From a virus, in the IMG/VR virus record IMGVR_UViG_3300025127_000012: a stretch of 64,000 nt of DNA, one strand, 5' to 3'. Below, one piece after another: positions 2,641-9,781 of this stretch. A model generated the notes under the pieces. That model did no database searches and had not been told where the DNA came from. It saw nothing but the letters and a program-made list of their open reading frames with translations. The position numbers were made by a program, and so were the translations under genes. Numbering within the stretch: position 1 is the first letter of the stretch; each line of letters begins with the position of its first letter.

Positions 2641-2815
2641 GGTATTTTGCCACCTGATCTAGTTCAACTTGAATTGCCTCCATGACATCAGAGTGTTCTC
2701 CAATGCCAGCAGGGTTCTCCAAATATATTTCAATGTTTGCTAGGTGTTTTTTAATGTCACCCATAGCATGCGCTTTAAGAGCGTTAAGAATTGTTTTTCT
2801 CATAGATGGTATCAT
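2588..2815 (-). CDS. Conserved T4-like phage hypothetical protein (helical)
   Basis: NIEIYLENPAGIGEHSD motif familiar from T4-like phages; overlaps both neighbours. Confidence 0.8.
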   Translation of the reverse strand: MIPSMRKTILNALKAHAMGDIKKHLANIEIYLENPAGIGEHSDVMEAIQVELDQVAKYHDQLEVIKNYIDRESSS

Positions 2816-3273
2816 TCTATTAACGTTCCTTGACTTCTACGAATCTCTTTAAGAGACTCAAAGTCTTTACGTTTGGTACCACCATCATAGCACCATGCGT
2901 ACCCTTCGTCAATCATCTGTTCATTCAGCGACTTTTCCTCGTCACCCACATATAACCAACCAAGGAGACGACCATACTTACCAACCCCGCCTTTAAGTTC
3001 AGTTCGTATAGTAAGTTCATGTTCTCCATTAATCGTGTCCTCCAATGTTCCTTTCATCCAGTTAGTTGCATCTATACCTAGTTTCTTTTCTTCAAGGTCT
3101 CTCGTTCTTTTCTCAGGAGTATCGATACCCGCTATTCTTACACGTTCGTGTTTGTAAATATCAAATCCTAAGTCTATTACTACATCAATGGTATCACCAT
3201 CAACTACCTTTACTATCTCCGTCACTCGGAAGTTGTAACAACTCTTCCTGCTTGGTGGTGTCATTGCTCCCAT
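2812..3273 (-). CDS. Thermonuclease (staphylococcal nuclease-like)
   Basis: KVVDGDTI, RVRIAGIDTPE, KYGRLLG and LNEQMIDEGYA are canonical SNase motifs. Confidence 0.92.
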   Translation of the reverse strand: MGAMTPPSRKSCYNFRVTEIVKVVDGDTIDVVIDLGFDIYKHERVRIAGIDTPEKRTRDLEEKKLGIDATNWMKGTLEDTINGEHELTIRTELKGGVGKYGRLLGWLYVGDEEKSLNEQMIDEGYAWCYDGGTKRKDFESLKEIRRSQGTLIE

Positions 3274-3376
3274 CGTTCATTTCCTCATAGGCATACTTCA
3301 TTATATAGGCGATAAGAATCGTCACACTTATTACAAGTATGAGAACCATAATGTTAACTGAATGAACTACAACCAT
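3200..3376 (-). CDS. 58-aa single-TM protein; not in the ORF track
   Basis: ATG overlaps the PTOX stop (TAATG). MVVVHSVNIMVLILVISVTILIAYIMKYAYEEMNDGSNDTTKQEELLQLPSDGDSKGS. Fills the 3274-3375 gap and overlaps the nuclease by 74 nt. Confidence 0.7.
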   Translation of the reverse strand: MVVVHSVNIMVLILVISVTILIAYIMKYAYEEMNDGSNDTTKQEELLQLPSDGDSKGS

Positions 3377-3876
3377 TAGATCATAGACATTGCGTGGTGT
3401 AATTCGTGTGCGTGTTTTAGTTCGTCTTCTGCTATCTCTGCTATCTTCTGATCTTCTGGATGATATGCCAAATATTTTATATACGTCTCGAATGCATGCT
3501 TCTCTATCTTCATATTAATATCATAAGCAGCAAGAGGATTAATAAGATAGTACCCAACCATGATCCAATAATATACAAGAACAAGGTGCTTTGCAAAAAA
3601 CCTGTCAATCCAGTGTTCATCACCACCGCGCTTTTCCATTTCTTCAAGATGCTCTGTCTCATTTAGTGCCTGATAAAAGTGTTCCTTCATTAAGTATATG
3701 TGTTCTGGTCCTCTAAGTCCTAACGACTCACGGAAGTGTAGAACAGATATAAAAGAGAAGTAGGGTGCTCTCGCAATAACTTCTAATACCCAGAATCTTT
3801 GGAAGTCTCTACCTCTGTAAAGAAAATCCAAGATGTAGATTGTGGTGTCTAGTACCCAAGTGTTAAATTGTTTCAT
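3376..3876 (-). CDS. ptox: Plastoquinol (plastid) terminal oxidase
   Basis: RFWVLEVIARAPYFSF, NETEHL, IEKHAFETY and DELKH give the di-iron E/ExxH/E/ExxH ligands of the AOX/PTOX family. ATG at 3876 preferred over TTG at 3882. Confidence 0.95.
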   Translation of the reverse strand: MKQFNTWVLDTTIYILDFLYRGRDFQRFWVLEVIARAPYFSFISVLHFRESLGLRGPEHIYLMKEHFYQALNETEHLEEMEKRGGDEHWIDRFFAKHLVLVYYWIMVGYYLINPLAAYDINMKIEKHAFETYIKYLAYHPEDQKIAEIAEDELKHAHELHHAMSMI

Positions 3877-3959
3877 ACCCAAGCATAACGTGAAAATAAA
3901 AGAGCAAGACTAACTGTTCCAAACAAAATACATGATGACCTGATTGGTAAATCTTTCAT
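3873..3959 (-). CDS. 28-aa single-TM micro-protein coupled to PTOX; not in the ORF track
   Basis: MKDLPIRSSCILFGTVSLALLFSRYAWV; its TGA overlaps the PTOX ATG (ATGA). Confidence 0.65.
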   Translation of the reverse strand: MKDLPIRSSCILFGTVSLALLFSRYAWV

Positions 3960-3974
3960 TTAACTTTATTAAAC

Positions 3975-3993
3975 TACCTATATTATATAGGTA
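3975..3993. promoter_or_regulatory. Perfect 8-bp inverted repeat centred on a minus-strand TATAAT, upstream of the micro-ORF/ptox unit
   Basis: tacctata-tta-tataggta; minus strand reads TACCTATATAATATAGGTA, ending 16 nt before ATG 3959. Confidence 0.45.
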
Positions 3994-4000
3994 ATTTTAC

Positions 4001-4366
4001 TTATCCGTGGTTCTGTAACTTCTCTAATTGTGTTGATGCCGACATACTAGGTACGTCATATAAACCATTTGCATCAAACCATGGTGCGGTTTCCCAGTCA
4101 AACCCTTCTCCAAATGTATTATCTGCCTGCTGTACATACCAATGACATTTTGCATCAGGTATATCTACTGCACAAACTGCCCAGTCATCTGTCCATTGTG
4201 GAACCTGTACATACAATACTGGTACATCAGCATATGCAATCTGTGTCATACCTAACATAAAGGCAAGTACGACTGACCATGTAAAAATTCTAGGGATGTG
4301 TCTAACCGACGGAGGGTGACCTTTTCCTCGGTACACCTCCATCACATCGTGATAAGAGTAATTCAT
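4001..4366 (-). CDS. Hypothetical exported protein (signal peptide, Trp/Asp-rich mature part, Cys pair)
   Basis: Basic stretch, hydrophobic IFTWSVVLAFMLGMT, then an AYA-D cleavage motif. Mature part VPQWTDDWAVCAVDIPDAKCHWY. Confidence 0.75.
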   Translation of the reverse strand: MNYSYHDVMEVYRGKGHPPSVRHIPRIFTWSVVLAFMLGMTQIAYADVPVLYVQVPQWTDDWAVCAVDIPDAKCHWYVQQADNTFGEGFDWETAPWFDANGLYDVPSMSASTQLEKLQNHG

Positions 4367-4367
4367 A

Positions 4368-4733
4368 TTAGCAGTTCCACGCTCGTAGTGATTTATTTAT
4401 ACGAGAGTCAGGGTCACGAGCAGTTTTTGCTGATGTAAGTTTTCGTTTCATGCCTTTCATTCTAGCACAAAAACTTGCTCTACGCTTATTACCTTTCTTC
4501 TTGCTTGGTGCTTTTAAGTCAGAACCAGGATTCTCACGTTCGTAAGACTTTCTCCCTTTCTCATTTAAACCACCTTCTTTATTCTGTCCTTCCTTCTTTG
4601 TCCATGCTGCTTCCTTCATCATCTTCTTTTCCTCACAAGTTTTCTCAACACACATCTGACACTTCGGGCAATACTTTTTACCGTCAGGGCAGTTAGATGC
4701 TTCTTGTAGATACTCGTTGAAGGTTAAGATCAT
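4368..4733 (-). CDS. Putative head-internal protein with capsid-targeting-like N-terminus (DUF6321-like C-domain)
   Basis: MILTFNEYLQE resembles the T4 CTS MKTYQEFIAE. Cys-rich peptide, second site MKE/A, then basic AAWTKKEG...GGLNEKGR...RRASFCARM...RINKSLRAWNC. Confidence 0.75.
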   Translation of the reverse strand: MILTFNEYLQEASNCPDGKKYCPKCQMCVEKTCEEKKMMKEAAWTKKEGQNKEGGLNEKGRKSYERENPGSDLKAPSKKKGNKRRASFCARMKGMKRKLTSAKTARDPDSRINKSLRAWNC

Positions 4734-4855
4734 GATCTCTTAGCACAATTCAGTTCGTGTTTTTCCATCCAAGTTCTTGGACGTGCGTGACCTAACGGTG
4801 CAGTTAGTCCACAGTATTGGCATTCATAAACGCCATTGTCATTTCTTTTTGCCAT
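4730..4855 (-). CDS. 41-aa C2HC zinc-finger micro-protein; not in the ORF track
   Basis: MAKRNDNGVYECQYCGLTAPLGHARPRTWMEKHELNCAKRS (C-x2-C-x17-H-x3-C). Stop overlaps the next ATG (ATGA); start overlaps the end of the 684-aa ORF. Confidence 0.75.
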   Translation of the reverse strand: MAKRNDNGVYECQYCGLTAPLGHARPRTWMEKHELNCAKRS

Positions 4856-6893
4856 AGTGATAAGTTGAGTTAGGTTTAGTTTTCTTAGGTAGTTTACCGC
4901 CCCTTACTTTGGTTGCGGATGTTTCACCTTCACCAGAGGGGTTCTTACCTTTCTTTACTTCTTTGCCGAGGTTGTATGACTTGCCAGGTTTCTTAGATTC
5001 AGTGTCATGTAATCTAGCGGGTTTCCCTGCCTTCTTAGTAATCACTGATTCCTGTCCATGCTTACGTCCTAAACGACGTGTAAGTTTTCCAAACTTACGC
5101 TTAGACATTCCCTTGCCAGGACTTGTTTGGTAGGATACTTCTCTACCAGTAGATCCATCATCATACTTGTAACTACCGACTGATTTTTTATAACCAATCC
5201 CTTTCTTTTTAAGATCCTTTTCGAGACTCTTACGACTCTCTCGGTTCTTTTTTTCGTCTGTACCTCTGTCTGCTGCAATACTACCAGTAGTCTGGTTCTT
5301 TGCTTTTGACATCATACGAGCACGATCATTTCCTTCTTTAAGGAAATCAGAGAATGACATTACATCCTCTTTCTGCAACTTTTTCTTTTGCCATGAGTCA
5401 AGTGCTTGGTCAGGACGTTTGCCCTTTGCCATTTCACTCTTCTTATGTGCTTGGAACTTAGCAGCAGAATCTGCTTTCGCTTTCTTATCAGCAGCATTTT
5501 TTGCTGCTTGTTTCGCGACGTTCGCTTTTGCCTTATCCTGTACTGCTTGCAGTTTGGGATTAAGTGCCTCACCCATTATAGCATCCTTTCCGTATTTTTG
5601 TCTAATGTTCGCTTTTACCTTGTCTAATGCATTGCCAGGACGCTTCCATGTGTTGCCTTGACCAGGTGTAGCAACGCTTTTCTTTGCTAATGGTTTGATT
5701 TTACCATCGTCTCTTAGACGATCATATCCTTCTTCTTTTACAACCTTCTTATATTTTGATAGGGTTTTCACACCACGCTTCTCTTTGTGTGCTTTGTGTC
5801 TCTTATCCATTGACACAAGTCTCTCAGCAGGATCAGCAGCATTACCACCCTCACCTGTGTGTCTTACGTTTCTAATAGATGCCTTACCATAGTTAGAACG
5901 ACCACGCTCCTGACTTAATCTCTGGTTGTCACTATCCTTTTGTCTTTCATCTAATACTTCTACTTCTTCCTTTGTTATCTTATCAGTTGCTTTTAATATA
6001 CCAGAATGTCTTTTTGTTACCTTATCTTTGTCACCTTTTACAGCACCTATTGCCATGTCTGTGGATGCTTTCTTAACGTAAGAACCCATTGTCTTCTTAC
6101 TTAACTCATCTAACTGATCTAATGCTTTACTTGACCAATATACTTCTGTGTCTTCTGATCTGTTTAAACTCTTACGATTAGAATGATGACTTGGATCATC
6201 AAATGCAGGGTTACCTGTCTTTCTTGCAACTGGTTTCTTCTTTGTATCTGGTTTTGCTTTCTTTACAAATCCTGCAAACTGCATCTTAGGTTTACCATCA
6301 CCTTTGTAGAGACCGTATGATGTACCTTCATGTGTAAATTTCATACCCTTAGTTGCTTTGTCTTTAAGTGCTTCACGTTTTTTAGGATCCATGTTCTTTT
6401 CGTAATCTGCTAATTTAGCAGCAAACTTTTTGTTATCCATTTTCTTGATAACTTTTCTGTCTGCTTTGTTAGGTCCTGTATATGAGGTGCTCCCAGTAAC
6501 AGCACCACCGCCTGCTGCTGTACCTATTGCTGCCTCTTCGACACCTTGCATTTTACCTCTCCTGTTAGTTTGAGCGACACCTTGTGGTAGACCTGTATTA
6601 CCTGTGCCGATTTTGTCGTTCTTCTTACGAAGTCTTTTTAGTTTAGCAAAGGTGTTCATAAACTCTGCTGATGATCTAAAATCAGAATTACCTACATGCT
6701 CTACTGATTCTTTTTTCACTTTCTTTTCTGGTAATCCTTTATGTTTAGTTGATGCAAACTTCTTTGCATCTTTCATTTTTATGCTGGAAGCAACTCTGGC
6801 AACCTCAGATGAGGGAGCTTGCGTCGAATTCCCTTTTTGAAACGCTCTAACCATCCCGAAGAACCTTTGTTGTTTCTTTGAGACTGCGGGCAT
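4839..6893 (-). CDS. Basic head-internal polyprotein: DUF3008-like N-terminus, multiple Glu-terminated linkers, C-terminal SAM-lyase-like domain
   Basis: Lys-rich 50-80 aa blocks separated by hydrophobic-x-E linkers; internal CTS-like MSFSDFLKE; C-terminal AADRG..N..R..L..G..GSY..E.S..LG.K.GQESVI. Confidence 0.7.
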   Translation of the reverse strand: MPAVSKKQQRFFGMVRAFQKGNSTQAPSSEVARVASSIKMKDAKKFASTKHKGLPEKKVKKESVEHVGNSDFRSSAEFMNTFAKLKRLRKKNDKIGTGNTGLPQGVAQTNRRGKMQGVEEAAIGTAAGGGAVTGSTSYTGPNKADRKVIKKMDNKKFAAKLADYEKNMDPKKREALKDKATKGMKFTHEGTSYGLYKGDGKPKMQFAGFVKKAKPDTKKKPVARKTGNPAFDDPSHHSNRKSLNRSEDTEVYWSSKALDQLDELSKKTMGSYVKKASTDMAIGAVKGDKDKVTKRHSGILKATDKITKEEVEVLDERQKDSDNQRLSQERGRSNYGKASIRNVRHTGEGGNAADPAERLVSMDKRHKAHKEKRGVKTLSKYKKVVKEEGYDRLRDDGKIKPLAKKSVATPGQGNTWKRPGNALDKVKANIRQKYGKDAIMGEALNPKLQAVQDKAKANVAKQAAKNAADKKAKADSAAKFQAHKKSEMAKGKRPDQALDSWQKKKLQKEDVMSFSDFLKEGNDRARMMSKAKNQTTGSIAADRGTDEKKNRESRKSLEKDLKKKGIGYKKSVGSYKYDDGSTGREVSYQTSPGKGMSKRKFGKLTRRLGRKHGQESVITKKAGKPARLHDTESKKPGKSYNLGKEVKKGKNPSGEGETSATKVRGGKLPKKTKPNSTYHYGKKK

Positions 6894-7433
6894 TTATCCT
6901 CCGACAATTTGAACTTGCTCGACAACAACTGCGTTAGAACCAGCGACAAGTTTTGCAACTCGTTGTATGACTGGCACAGTTCCTGCTGTTGCATCTGCTG
7001 CACTAAGAGTGTATGCAGATCCTGCTCCTGATGCGTCATAGTCTGTTGTAATAGTAGAACCAGTGACTGCGGTAACTTTCTTTCCAGATGCTGCTGCGGA
7101 TTCAAAGTCAGATGTAAATCCATCTGTGTCTCCACCATCAATAGTCTGGACAAAATCACCAACACTGAATGTATGGCGACCACCACCTGAGAAACCTTCT
7201 GCTGTTACTACCATAGTAGCAGCGTTGGTTGCAGCAGCGATCTTTGCGGTTTTAACTTTACCACAGGAAACTAACAATGCTTCTCCTGCTGCCAAAGTTA
7301 TAGCGGGACCACCGTCTATCGCTAACGTTGACGCGGATGCTGCATAGCATCTAAGCACACCACTTTTTACCACGATATAGCTTGTGCCACTTCCTGATAC
7401 TGTTTGGGTGTCAATTACATTTAATACTGACAT
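6894..7433 (-). CDS. Probable virion structural protein (Ala/Gly/Thr-rich beta protein)
   Basis: Composition typical of cyanophage structural proteins; AGGAG RBS at 7446-7450; directly behind a late promoter. Confidence 0.6.
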   Translation of the reverse strand: MSVLNVIDTQTVSGSGTSYIVVKSGVLRCYAASASTLAIDGGPAITLAAGEALLVSCGKVKTAKIAAATNAATMVVTAEGFSGGGRHTFSVGDFVQTIDGGDTDGFTSDFESAAASGKKVTAVTGSTITTDYDASGAGSAYTLSAADATAGTVPVIQRVAKLVAGSNAVVVEQVQIVGG

Positions 7434-7456: not shown

Positions 7457-7906
7457 TTATTTATCCTTTTCTTGCTTTAAGAATTTTGCAAGATCAGCAG
7501 TGCTACCAACGAACATGGTATTGTTAGTGACTTCTGTTTGTTTTCCTTTGCCTGGATTTTCTATTTCATTGACCTTCTTTTGTAGATCAACTAACTTGTC
7601 TGCCACGTCACCAACATGCTTTATGAGTTGTCCTGCAACTTCATATGCTCTTGGTTGATCAGACTCCTGTGCAAGTTCTAAAATACCATCTACTGCTTCT
7701 TGTCCTTTATCAATTAGTGTGTACAAGTTGCCTCTGGTATACTCATAATCTTTTTTAAGTTGTTGTTTATCTGATATATCTGCACTAGGTTCCACCTTCT
7801 TAATAGAAGTGTCTGTCTGCATAATTTCAGTCTTGACATCGAGGGCATCCTCGATACCAGCAAACTTACTCGTCTGCTCCTGTGGTTGGGTTTCTTGATT
7901 TTCCAT
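7457..7906 (-). CDS. gp16: Terminase small subunit
   Basis: KDYEYTRGNLY, ESDQPRAYEVAGQLIK, NNTMFVGSTADL; follows gp15. Start set at ATG 7906 rather than 7948. Confidence 0.95.
   Translation of the reverse strand: MENQETQPQEQTSKFAGIEDALDVKTEIMQTDTSIKKVEPSADISDKQQLKKDYEYTRGNLYTLIDKGQEAVDGILELAQESDQPRAYEVAGQLIKHVGDVADKLVDLQKKVNEIENPGKGKQTEVTNNTMFVGSTADLAKFLKQEKDK
7458..7465 (-). promoter_or_regulatory. T4-type late promoter (GATAAATA) heading the gp16-gp17 island
   Basis: 7/8 match to TATAAATA, overlapping the gp16 stop and upstream of the RBS of the 179-aa gene. Confidence 0.7.
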
Positions 7907-8906
7907 CAGTAAACTCACTATAAAGTTCGTTGAATCCAAAGTCATCATCAGAGTCTAACAATGCATGATCTGCACTTGTTATGATGAATACATTTGAACT
8001 CGCTACATGTGCTGCTATGGTTGAATTATTAAACGCACGAGCAACATATAATTTGTTGTCAACAATTTTTGTGACACGCATTACCTCACTATCTATCTGA
8101 ATGTCATCTTTCAATGATATTCCAGATGCGTCTGTTACATTTATAATGCCATCATTATCATCTATATCTGCTGATACAGTTGTGACTGCATTGTTATCTC
8201 TTTCAACAAGAGATCTAGGTGTAGCAACATAACGTACCTCTCTTGGTGCAGTTCTAACTGCCTCAGTAGAGTAGTCGATAATAGTTTTCTTAATAAGTTC
8301 ACCAGACTTATCAACTACTGGACCGTACATGTATGTCTTAGCAATAAATTGCAATGTATATATTAACGTTCTTCTGGTATCGTAGTCTCCTTCGTACTCG
8401 TCTCCGTAATCAATACTTGTTAGCGTTACAGGATAATCTTTTGTCTCTCCTAATTCTGGTACAAGATTCATTGTAATATTGAAACTTGGTTGGAAGAATG
8501 GAAGTATCTGTTCTAGTATTTGTAGAGCATCATCTTGGTTCTTACTTAATATTGCTAACTCAAAATTAATATTGTAAGGAACAGGCATGAATCCTTTGTT
8601 CTCTTTACTACCTGTTGAATGTCTAATGTATTGTGTTGGTGATACCTTTCTAGTAGGATCATAATTAATACCTTGTATCTCAAATGATATTCTAGGTAAT
8701 GTGATCTGTACCTGATCCTGTGTTGTTAAGTCACCTAACTGACGTAAACGTGCTAAGAACTTTGCCTTTGGTCCATAAGCAAGAGGTACTTTCATGACCT
8801 CTGTCTTAGAACCAGACACACGTCTGATTTCTATGTTATTAAATAACGTACCGAATCCTACAACGGTCTTTTTTATTATACCGTTGTAATTATATGAACC
8901 AAGCAT
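7866..8906 (-). CDS. gp15: Tail sheath stabiliser / tail completion protein
   Basis: FGTLFNNI, VPLAYGPK, TLPRISFE, PVPYN, DALQILEQILPFFQP; synteny. Confidence 0.95.
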   Translation of the reverse strand: MLGSYNYNGIIKKTVVGFGTLFNNIEIRRVSGSKTEVMKVPLAYGPKAKFLARLRQLGDLTTQDQVQITLPRISFEIQGINYDPTRKVSPTQYIRHSTGSKENKGFMPVPYNINFELAILSKNQDDALQILEQILPFFQPSFNITMNLVPELGETKDYPVTLTSIDYGDEYEGDYDTRRTLIYTLQFIAKTYMYGPVVDKSGELIKKTIIDYSTEAVRTAPREVRYVATPRSLVERDNNAVTTVSADIDDNDGIINVTDASGISLKDDIQIDSEVMRVTKIVDNKLYVARAFNNSTIAAHVASSNVFIITSADHALLDSDDDFGFNELYSEFTDGKSRNPTTGADE

Positions 8907-9781
8907 TAGATAGAACCTCCACTATTTCCAAATTCACCGAATGGATTGCCTTGTGTAAAGTCTAGTATACCATCGGCAGTCGTCTCAATAGACGCATTGA
9001 TATCAAATTCGGAGTTAGTATTATTTATTGTATTATATGATGCAGTTGTGAACGATGCACTAGATGTGCCACCAGTGATCGTTTCTGGGACCGTGAAGGT
9101 GCCTGATCTGTTAATCACTATCAAAGTATTGGTTGAACTATCAAATGACTTAACCTCAGCAGTAACATTAGATGTACCACCAGTTACAGTTTCACCAGCA
9201 GTGAATGTTCCAGATCCACCAGCAACTAGACCAACTGTGATAGCATTGGCAAAGTTCTGCTCTAATGCATCTACTGCTGCCACACCAGTATCGATATCCT
9301 CGTCGCTGTACTCGAACAACTCACAGCGTAAACCCCAAACATAGTTCTTACCAAACTGGTAGAAAGGTTGTTCGTGCTCTACAAACTGTATCTCAAAAGT
9401 TTTATTTGCCATAGGCAAATGTATTAGGTCACCTTCGTTAGGTCTACCCTCTACAATTAAAGTTGCATTATCGTCTACTGCTGCTGTAAATCTTGACCTT
9501 GATATAACAAAGGTGATTTGGTCTTGTATTCTGACTCCAAACTTAGAGAAAATATCACCGTCGCCCCTAAAACCACCAGCATCTTCAATGTACGCTTCAA
9601 TTAAGTGTGCTCCTTCAAACTTAGAGAGGGTATCCTCCCCGAAGACGCTATCTTCTTTAACAAGAGTTCTCGGGATATAGTAGACATCTTTGCCGAACAT
9701 TTTAATCTGCTCTGTGACAAGAGACTCTTGTAAATCTTGCTCTCCTGTTGTACCGTTGGTAAAGTAACTGTTAGTTGCCAT
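8906..9781 (-). CDS. gp14: Neck protein
   Basis: GKDVYYIPR, FGED, SKFGV, RPNEGDLI, PFYQFGK, C-terminal NPFG. Confidence 0.95.
   Translation of the reverse strand: MATNSYFTNGTTGEQDLQESLVTEQIKMFGKDVYYIPRTLVKEDSVFGEDTLSKFEGAHLIEAYIEDAGGFRGDGDIFSKFGVRIQDQITFVISRSRFTAAVDDNATLIVEGRPNEGDLIHLPMANKTFEIQFVEHEQPFYQFGKNYVWGLRCELFEYSDEDIDTGVAAVDALEQNFANAITVGLVAGGSGTFTAGETVTGGTSNVTAEVKSFDSSTNTLIVINRSGTFTVPETITGGTSSASFTTASYNTINNTNSEFDINASIETTADGILDFTQGNPFGEFGNSGGSI

Follow-up and report, generated by a model that had tools for sequence, protein, structure and literature searches.

A shuffled polyprotein with a predicted T3-type SAM lyase domain as probable head cargo of a T4-like cyanophage

Introduction

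The internal proteins of phage T4 are the classic example of proteins injected together with phage DNA, and they have been thought to be poorly conserved outside the T-even coliphages. IPI, IPII, IPIII and Alt are very basic cargoes of the head and carry a ten-residue leader of the MKTYQEFIAE type that ends in L/I-x-E. This capsid targeting sequence (CTS), MKTYQEFIAE, is removed by one cut and is enough to load foreign proteins into the head (PMC8442874; PMC9026906), and the specificity of the T4 protease gp21 is likewise L/I-x-E (PMC9026906). One of the T4 cargoes, IPI*, is an injected anti-restriction protein. With Asp as the final residue of the T4 CTS, processing is blocked but targeting is not. 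Here we describe a locus in a stretch of 64,000 nucleotides (nt) of viral DNA (record IMGVR_UViG_3300025127_000012; the window), which is part of a T4-like cyanomyovirus. A Lys-rich open reading frame (ORF) of 684 amino acids (aa) on its minus strand (4839-6893) joins up to nine exchangeable modules, the last of which is, by predicted fold and residues, a T3-type S-adenosylmethionine (SAM) lyase domain; in our view it probably encodes a head-targeted cargo polyprotein.

The likeness to T4 lies in the very basic cargo, in leaders of the T4 type (here in stand-alone relatives of the last module, which start MKTYQEFMLE or MKSFQQFMAE), in the diversity and exchangeability of the leader-bearing genes, and in a gp21 homologue encoded by the nearest relative. 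The layout differs. Each T4 cargo has its own gene, an N-terminal leader and one cut, whereas here up to nine modules share one ORF with internal junctions, and no sequence similarity between the polyprotein and the mature T4 internal proteins was found.

The last module, M9, resembles the T3 SAM lyase (SAMase, gp0.3; structures 7OCK and 8BB1) and Svi3-3 (6ZM9) in its predicted fold, in its Pfam family (PF23780) and in its substrate-binding residues (G-x-Y, Glu, Gln-Glu/Asp). T3 SAMase is a free, early cytoplasmic protein, whereas M9 closes a polyprotein of the late region and stands behind a putative capsid targeting element; M9 is about 13% identical to T3 SAMase, is very Lys-rich and has a low-confidence tail of about 40 residues.

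In phiKZ and SPN3US, head and ejection proteins are cut several times after Glu by a protease related to T4 gp21, and the fragments are kept in the head and ejected, a parallel that we draw by description only. The cleavage motif in these phages is small residue-x-Glu; their proteins are unrelated to the one described here, and shuffled cassettes of small modules have not been described for them. A SAM-degrading enzyme has been detected by mass spectrometry in the virions of another T4-like cyanophage, S-CREM2, as a protein annotated SAM hydrolase (ORF6, 19 peptides; PMC10665884, Front Microbiol 2023). S-CREM2 is a cluster C phage, no targeting or processing mechanism was proposed for its hydrolase, and a tblastn search with M9 found no S-CREM2 record.

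Genes of the same family at the same locus after gp16 were catalogued earlier as T4-GC119 and T4-GC110 (Sullivan et al. 2010). T4-GC119 is the polyprotein family and T4-GC110 the stand-alone SAM lyase form, and the 684-aa ORF joins modules of both. The 2010 work gave no function, module map, CTS or protease reading, or SAM lyase assignment for them. The T4 system of internal proteins, CTS and gp21, the existence of the virion protein family and one cyanophage virion SAM hydrolase are already known; a polyprotein whose junctions are internal, whose cassettes reassort and whose SAM lyase stands behind a CTS appears to be undescribed in the literature searched, in which we found no paper tying capsid targeting sequences to cyanophage proteins.

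To judge from this locus, the T4 logic of targeting and cutting may extend to the most abundant marine myoviruses, where a polyprotein form makes the set of cargoes modular and exchangeable. T4-GC119/110, a widespread 'structural protein of unknown function', is thereby given a testable mechanism. A further prediction is a SAM lyase that is loaded in advance and counters host defences in the first minute of Prochlorococcus and Synechococcus infections, and the route by which a SAM-degrading enzyme enters cyanophage virions, as in S-CREM2, would be explained as well.

Modular architecture and shuffling

The initial annotation had divided the protein into about nine unrelated, Lys-rich blocks separated by Glu-containing linkers of the prohead protease type, and had proposed that these blocks can be shuffled between phages. 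All eight linker strings that it quoted are present in the 684-aa ORF (at protein positions 59, 117, 186, 260, 312, 385, 439 and 517), as is the LDELSKKTMGSYVKKA block (at 261); Lys accounts for 18.9% of the residues, and the blocks are mutually unrelated. The polyprotein was cut at the proposed sites and each piece was searched against about 400 relatives, which revealed 73 different module architectures, permuted orders included. The order M1-M2-M3-M4-J-M5-M6-M7-M8-M9 found here stands beside others such as M1-M7-M6-M3-M4-M9, M1-M5-M3-M6-DUF6321-M9 and M5-M5-M5. Reassortment between phages is thus borne out, and the homologues are shuffled at the Glu linkers rather than collinear.

Exchange of cassettes is clean among relatives with 94-98% DNA identity over aligned segments. 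Three loci (L022-L024) contain an extra cassette of 82 aa, and nt 913-958 of the query gene, which encode residues 305-319 at the KEEVEVLDE junction, match both flanks of this cassette; the junction-coding DNA therefore forms a direct repeat around it. In the nearest record (L016, the same as G001), with 91-97% DNA identity over its aligned segments (91% over one segment), residue 264 is joined directly to residue 313, LDE to LDE, and an insert of 157 aa lies between residues 225 and 246. Cassettes are swapped with breakpoints in junction-coding DNA; DNA breakpoints were placed at aa 225/246, 264 and 305-319.

The same modularity is apparent in wider searches. With tblastn against isolated phages, residues 1-55 matched about 100 cyanophages, residues 141-201 a few and residues 507-681 about 30, and no isolated-phage record spanned 80% of the polyprotein. 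HMMER searches of 1.8 billion representative proteins gave match boundaries clustered at about 1-65, 135-200, 255-320, 305-383 and 508/518-681. Single modules are 60-90% identical across Prochlorococcus and Synechococcus phages, and the gene at the same position varies, encoding 769 aa in P-TIM40, 538 aa in P-RSM6 and 707 aa in S-SZBM1 and being split in two in P-RSM4; P-TIM40 gene 113, P-RSM6 CPXG_00114 and S-SZBM1 gp082 are long members of the family. The reading frame is open over 684 codons, and is also open in dozens of relatives with different module sets.

The modules all lie on the minus strand. M1 (aa 1-62; 6708-6893), usually the first module in these proteins, was fairly described by the initial annotation as DUF3008-like, its match to PF11450 spanning the full profile length (E 0.0019); the score of 18.8 bits, below the cut-off of 24, does not establish membership of that family. 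M2 (aa 63-120; 6534-6707) ends in GVEE and is followed by M3 (aa 121-189; 6327-6533), a Gly/Ala linker and then a YTGPNK...KFTHE block, which is swapped for an alternative module in close relatives. M4 (GTSYGLYKG..., aa 190-225), a variable stretch (226-245) and a junction segment J (248-263) that ends in LDE together occupy 6105-6326. M5 (aa 264-316; 5946-6104) begins SKKTMGSYVKKA, ends in KEEVEVLDE and is present in tandem copies in some relatives, while M6 (aa 317-388, RQKDSDNQRL...; 5730-5945) is the best-conserved small module. M7 (aa 389-442, GYDRLRD...; 5568-5729) ends in IMGE, M8 (aa 443-520; 5334-5567) is predicted to form a long helix, and M9 (aa 521-684; 4842-5333) is the predicted SAM lyase domain.

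As had been foreseen, whole-protein annotation misses this module structure; it misses the enzyme domain as well. A Pfam search with the whole polyprotein gave no match. Pfam searches with M2 to M8 one at a time yielded nothing credible, and a search of a protein atlas with residues 264-442 returned sub-threshold leads only. In the AF2 model the predicted local distance difference test score (pLDDT) is below 50 over most of residues 1-440, which are mostly predicted to be disordered with isolated helices.

The ORF starts with a Met codon at 6893, directly next to the stop codon of the DUF7243 gene upstream. Conservation of residues 1-13 extends to more than 100 phages, and many gene callers begin at Met14, so that public annotations of the family are often truncated. 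The Met14 start (the skipped segment being 6855-6893, minus strand) gives the 671-aa products found in databases.

Junction sequences and gp21 specificity

The distinct sequences found directly upstream of each module family in all relatives were compared, with background frequencies of 6.4% for Glu and 6.9% for Leu plus Ile; P1, P2 and P3 denote the last, second-last and third-last residues before a module. M5 is found in 40 distinct contexts (36 different far-upstream neighbours), with Glu at P1 and Leu, Ile or Val at P3 in all 40 and mostly Asp or Asn at P2. Before internal copies of M1 (8 distinct contexts) P1 is always Glu and P3 always Leu or Ile, whilst P2 may be Y, H, Q, K, D or N. The pattern extends to M6, with P1 Glu in 17 of 20 distinct contexts, P3 Ile or Leu in 18 and P2 drawn from N, S, T, D, K, V and L, and to M9, where 58 of the 67 distinct contexts have Glu at P1, 60 have a hydrophobic P3 and P2 is almost free. 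Glu also precedes M4 in 18/18 contexts, with a mixed P3, and the few contexts of M7 and M8 are of the V/M-x-E type. The VKKE/S boundary between M1 and M2 is weak, with 3 contexts only and no hydrophobic P3.

At the level of sequence, a fixed P1 Glu with an aliphatic P3 and a free P2 matches the specificity of T4 gp21. Because P1 and P3 are fixed while P2 is free, a purely recombinational DNA linker is unlikely. The eight protease-type sites of the initial annotation fared unequally: LDE263, LDE316 and LKE520 are canonical L-x-E, and VEE120, VKE387 and MGE442 have V or M at P3, whereas VKKE/S and FTHE/G could not be upheld.

A gp21 protease (PF03420, E 2e-37) is encoded in the nearest record (60% shared words), where gp23 also shows ILNE/AA at the position expected from the maturation of T4 gp23. 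In T4-like cyanophages gp21 is a core gene (Sullivan et al. 2010 table).

Capsid targeting elements and virion evidence

The last ten residues of M8 (511-520, VMSFSDFLKE; 5334-5363, minus strand) end in L-K-E directly before M9 and form an internal CTS-like copy. Stand-alone M9 relatives start with MKTYQEFMLE, MKTFQEFMVE, MKSFQQFMAE or MKTYKQFME, and P-SSM2 gene 114 with MRTFQEF; in polyproteins, M9 is preceded by TYREFIAE (S-SZBM1 gp082) or TYKEFIAE. A sequence of the form aromatic-xx-aromatic-hydrophobic-x-E stands directly before the domain in 128/135 short M9 proteins. Across the six frames of the 64-kb window there are just two instances of [FYW]-x-[EDQ]-[FYW]-[LIVM]-x-E, one before M9 and the other at the extreme N-terminus encoded by the neighbouring DUF6321 gene (4368-4733, minus strand; 121 aa), whose CTS-like leader is MILTFNEYLQE (4701-4733, minus strand). 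The DUF6321 genes of relatives start with MKTFKQYITE or MKNFAQYIEE, and DUF6321 is a module of the polyprotein in other phages. A shared packaging route is plausible because a T4-type CTS is present both before M9 and on the DUF6321 gene.

Two relatives carry such elements in other positions. The S-SM1 protein has an internal LSFQDFQE element before its DUF6321 module, and S-SCSM1 gp279 (L004 3001-3210), which consists of 69 aa, comprises M1 alone and owes its annotation as a virion protein to mass spectrometry, has a CTS-like RTFKEFLE at its C-terminus. The latter suggests, as far as the sequence can tell, that the targeting element is not bound to the N-terminus.

T4-GC119 is listed as a structural protein and was found in S-SM1 virions with 13 peptide counts; it is absent from S-PM2, and gene sizes in the family range from 276 to 2985 nt (Sullivan et al. 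2010). DUF7243 (T4-GC403), encoded directly upstream of the polyprotein, reached 60 peptide counts in S-SM1 virions (Sullivan et al. 2010, Suppl. Table 8).

Some further features of the DUF6321 protein were noted. Past its leader, roughly 30 residues that include five Cys are followed by MKE/A and then by the DUF6321 domain, which is basic. T4-GC119 of S-SM1 and Syn9 has the same domain as its C-terminal module.

The SAM lyase domain

The initial annotation had taken all blocks to be small Lys-rich peptides. This does not apply to the last one, which has 164 aa and is predicted to be a folded SAM lyase domain. Its AF2 model (pLDDT 74.8, predicted template-modelling score 0.70) ranks Svi3-3 (6ZM9, 6ZNB) and T3 SAMase (7OCK, 8BB1) at the top in Foldseek, and VIA, an all-against-all structural scan, gives Z 12.2 for 7OCK_L (root-mean-square deviation 3.5, 140 aligned residues), 8.2 for 6ZM9_A and 7.2 for the next structure. 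Homologues at 60-80% identity score 28-39 bits with PF23780, and nearly all stand-alone relatives carry this family.

The residues of Svi3-3 that bind SAM are G56, Y58, E69, Q104 and E105 (PMC7877911). Equivalent residues follow one another in this order and at similar distances in M9 (G573-x-Y575, E585 and Q614-E615-S616) and in T3 SAMase (G55-x-Y57, E68 and Q94-D95), the M9 residues being matched by motif and spacing and not by residue-level superposition. The substrate-binding residues of M9 are invariant in 29 relatives. Residues 521-684 are thus, by predicted fold and residues, a T3-type SAM lyase domain.

When M9 and T3 SAMase were aligned globally as a pair, the G-x-Y motif was mis-registered, and this alignment was left unused; a G-alpha match of the M9 profile among PDB sequences was spurious. 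The possibility that the CTS-like element is part of the SAM lyase fold was rejected, given that a model beginning only at residue 521 is enough to cover residues 4-153 of T3 SAMase.

A 41-aa ORF with a C-x2-C...H-x3-C pattern (4730-4855, minus strand) overlaps the end of the polyprotein gene in another frame and, through an ATGA overlap, also the start codon of the DUF6321 gene. It is kept in 20 related loci, always right behind the SAM lyase module; these include P-TIM40, P-RSM6 and S-SZBM1, in which it is mostly unannotated. Its product could be a partner or inhibitor of the lyase.

A head-cargo route and its alternatives

We consider it probable that the ORF encodes a head-targeted cargo polyprotein, likely expressed late, which would be loaded by means of a CTS, cut by gp21 into a SAM lyase and basic peptides, and injected. 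The computations show the modularity, the shuffling, the conservation of the junctions, the likeness to the CTS and the fold and residues of a SAM lyase; late expression, packaging, cleavage, injection and all host functions of the polyprotein are inferred. Under this proposal, a precursor 'cargo chain' would be made late, probably together with the abundant virion protein DUF7243, and would enter the prohead core through CTS elements, namely the internal one at 511-520 and possibly M1. A gp21-type protease would cut after Glu in L/I-x-E, with most confidence after 263, 316 and 520; residues 120, 387 and 442, where the junctions are of the V/M-x-E type, are possible further sites. The expected products are a T3-type SAM lyase (521-684) and several very basic, largely unstructured peptides, which would remain with the packaged DNA and enter the host together with it. 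The lyase would lower host SAM before any phage gene is read and blunt SAM-dependent defences, and the basic peptides may shield the charge of the DNA or act as effectors themselves. The label 'DNA-binding peptides or mini-effectors' that the initial annotation gave to the other modules has only their basic composition behind it. The observation made in that annotation is confirmed, and its interpretation is partly supported.

With a junction of its own, each module can join, leave or change place in the chain through recombination in the repeated junction DNA. The broader proposition that T4-like cyanophages run a combinatorial head-cargo system, in which modules flanked by L/I-x-E and accompanied by a CTS-type element are loaded, freed, injected and reassorted, a SAM lyase among them, seems to us evenly balanced between right and wrong.

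Several observations weigh against the cargo polyprotein. [LIVMF]-x-E occurs 7 times in the protein versus 6.0 +/- 2.2 in composition-preserving shuffles (p=0.39), and [LI]-x-E 4 times versus 2.4 (p=0.22); the bare motif is hence at chance level in this single protein, and significance comes only from the comparison with relatives. Two of the proposed sites, VKKE62 and THE189, have no hydrophobic P3. The polyprotein lacks a CTS at its own N-terminus, and the T4 tests were of N-terminal CTS only. Syn9 carries a T4-GC119 gene, and no peptides of it were found in Syn9 virions (Sullivan et al. 2010). As regards the lyase, residues 521-684 score 25.8 bits (E 1.1e-5) with PF23780, under the cut-off of 28, a search of PDB sequences with the M9 profile gave no SAM lyase match, and hhalign of the M9 alignment with T3 SAMase gave a probability of 0.2. 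With these sequence-only searches having failed, the link to SAM lyases rests on Pfam, fold and motifs.

The main rival explanation is that of an uncleaved, disordered and basic protein of the virion or head core, DNA-condensing or scaffold-like, in which the acidic junctions serve as spacers or recombination linkers and the lyase is the C-terminal domain of the full-length protein. It accords with the predicted disorder of most of residues 1-440, with the coincidence of repeated junction DNA and recombination breakpoints, and with the motif count at chance in a single sequence. However, linkers that served recombination only would be conserved as DNA, whereas across unrelated upstream neighbours P1 Glu and P3 Leu/Ile are fixed and P2 is free (D, N, S, T, K, V, H, Q, Y). 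Moreover, the sequence in front of M9 is almost the same as the T4 CTS, in which the final residues form the cleavage site. We regard an uncleaved protein as unlikely, if still deserving serious consideration.

The location of the gene inside the morphogenesis block gp14-gp15-gp16-DUF7243, directly behind an abundant virion protein, speaks against a second rival, according to which the product is a non-virion protein, late or early, that acts inside the cell after its synthesis as T3 SAMase does, the CTS-like motifs being due to chance or a structural part of the domain. T3 SAMase is indeed an early cytoplasmic enzyme (PMC8406200), T4-GC119 peptides were missing from Syn9 virions, and the promoter evidence for the locus is weak. 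Yet S-SM1 virions contained members of the family, the SAM lyase fold does not include the CTS-like element, and the same leader heads the unrelated family DUF6321, all of which makes a purely intracellular protein improbable. It is more improbable by far that the ORF is a fast-evolving composite on which no function has been selected, an accumulation of gene fragments fused together in the hypervariable region between gp16 and gp17. Gene flux is known to be concentrated in this region (PMC3037559) and gene size in the family spans 276 to 2985 nt, but the 684 codons form an unbroken frame, dozens of relatives with other module sets keep theirs open as well, the modules retain 60-90% identity across phages, the residues of the SAM lyase do not vary, and purifying selection on the modules is in effect already seen.

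Gene neighbourhood

The head-cargo polyprotein favoured here belongs to a minus-strand series that includes the genes of the gp14 neck protein (8906-9781), gp15 (7866-8906) and the small terminase gp16 (7457-7948), followed by the DUF7243 gene (6894-7433) directly upstream of the polyprotein ORF. DUF7243 is probably co-transcribed with the polyprotein. Its peptide count in S-SM1 virions exceeds that of most tail proteins. It may be an abundant head or decoration protein that is co-expressed with the cargo polyprotein.

A variant of the T4 late promoter box with one mismatch, GATAAATA (7458-7465, minus strand), recognised from its letters only, lies about 25 nt upstream of the DUF7243 start codon. 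The exact box TATAAATA was not found before the polyprotein gene, where there is the one-mismatch variant only, and is not enriched in the 64-kb window (4 seen versus 6.3 expected); scans for sigma-70 promoters and terminators were uninformative.

On the other side of the polyprotein ORF, the minus-strand order continues with the DUF6321 gene, a 121-aa gene, PTOX and an SNase-type endonuclease, the last two lying past the cargo genes (2812-4366). A possible mobile cassette located between gp16 and gp17 has been described, to which T4-GC119, PTOX, petE and the SNase-type endonuclease would belong (Sullivan et al. 2010).

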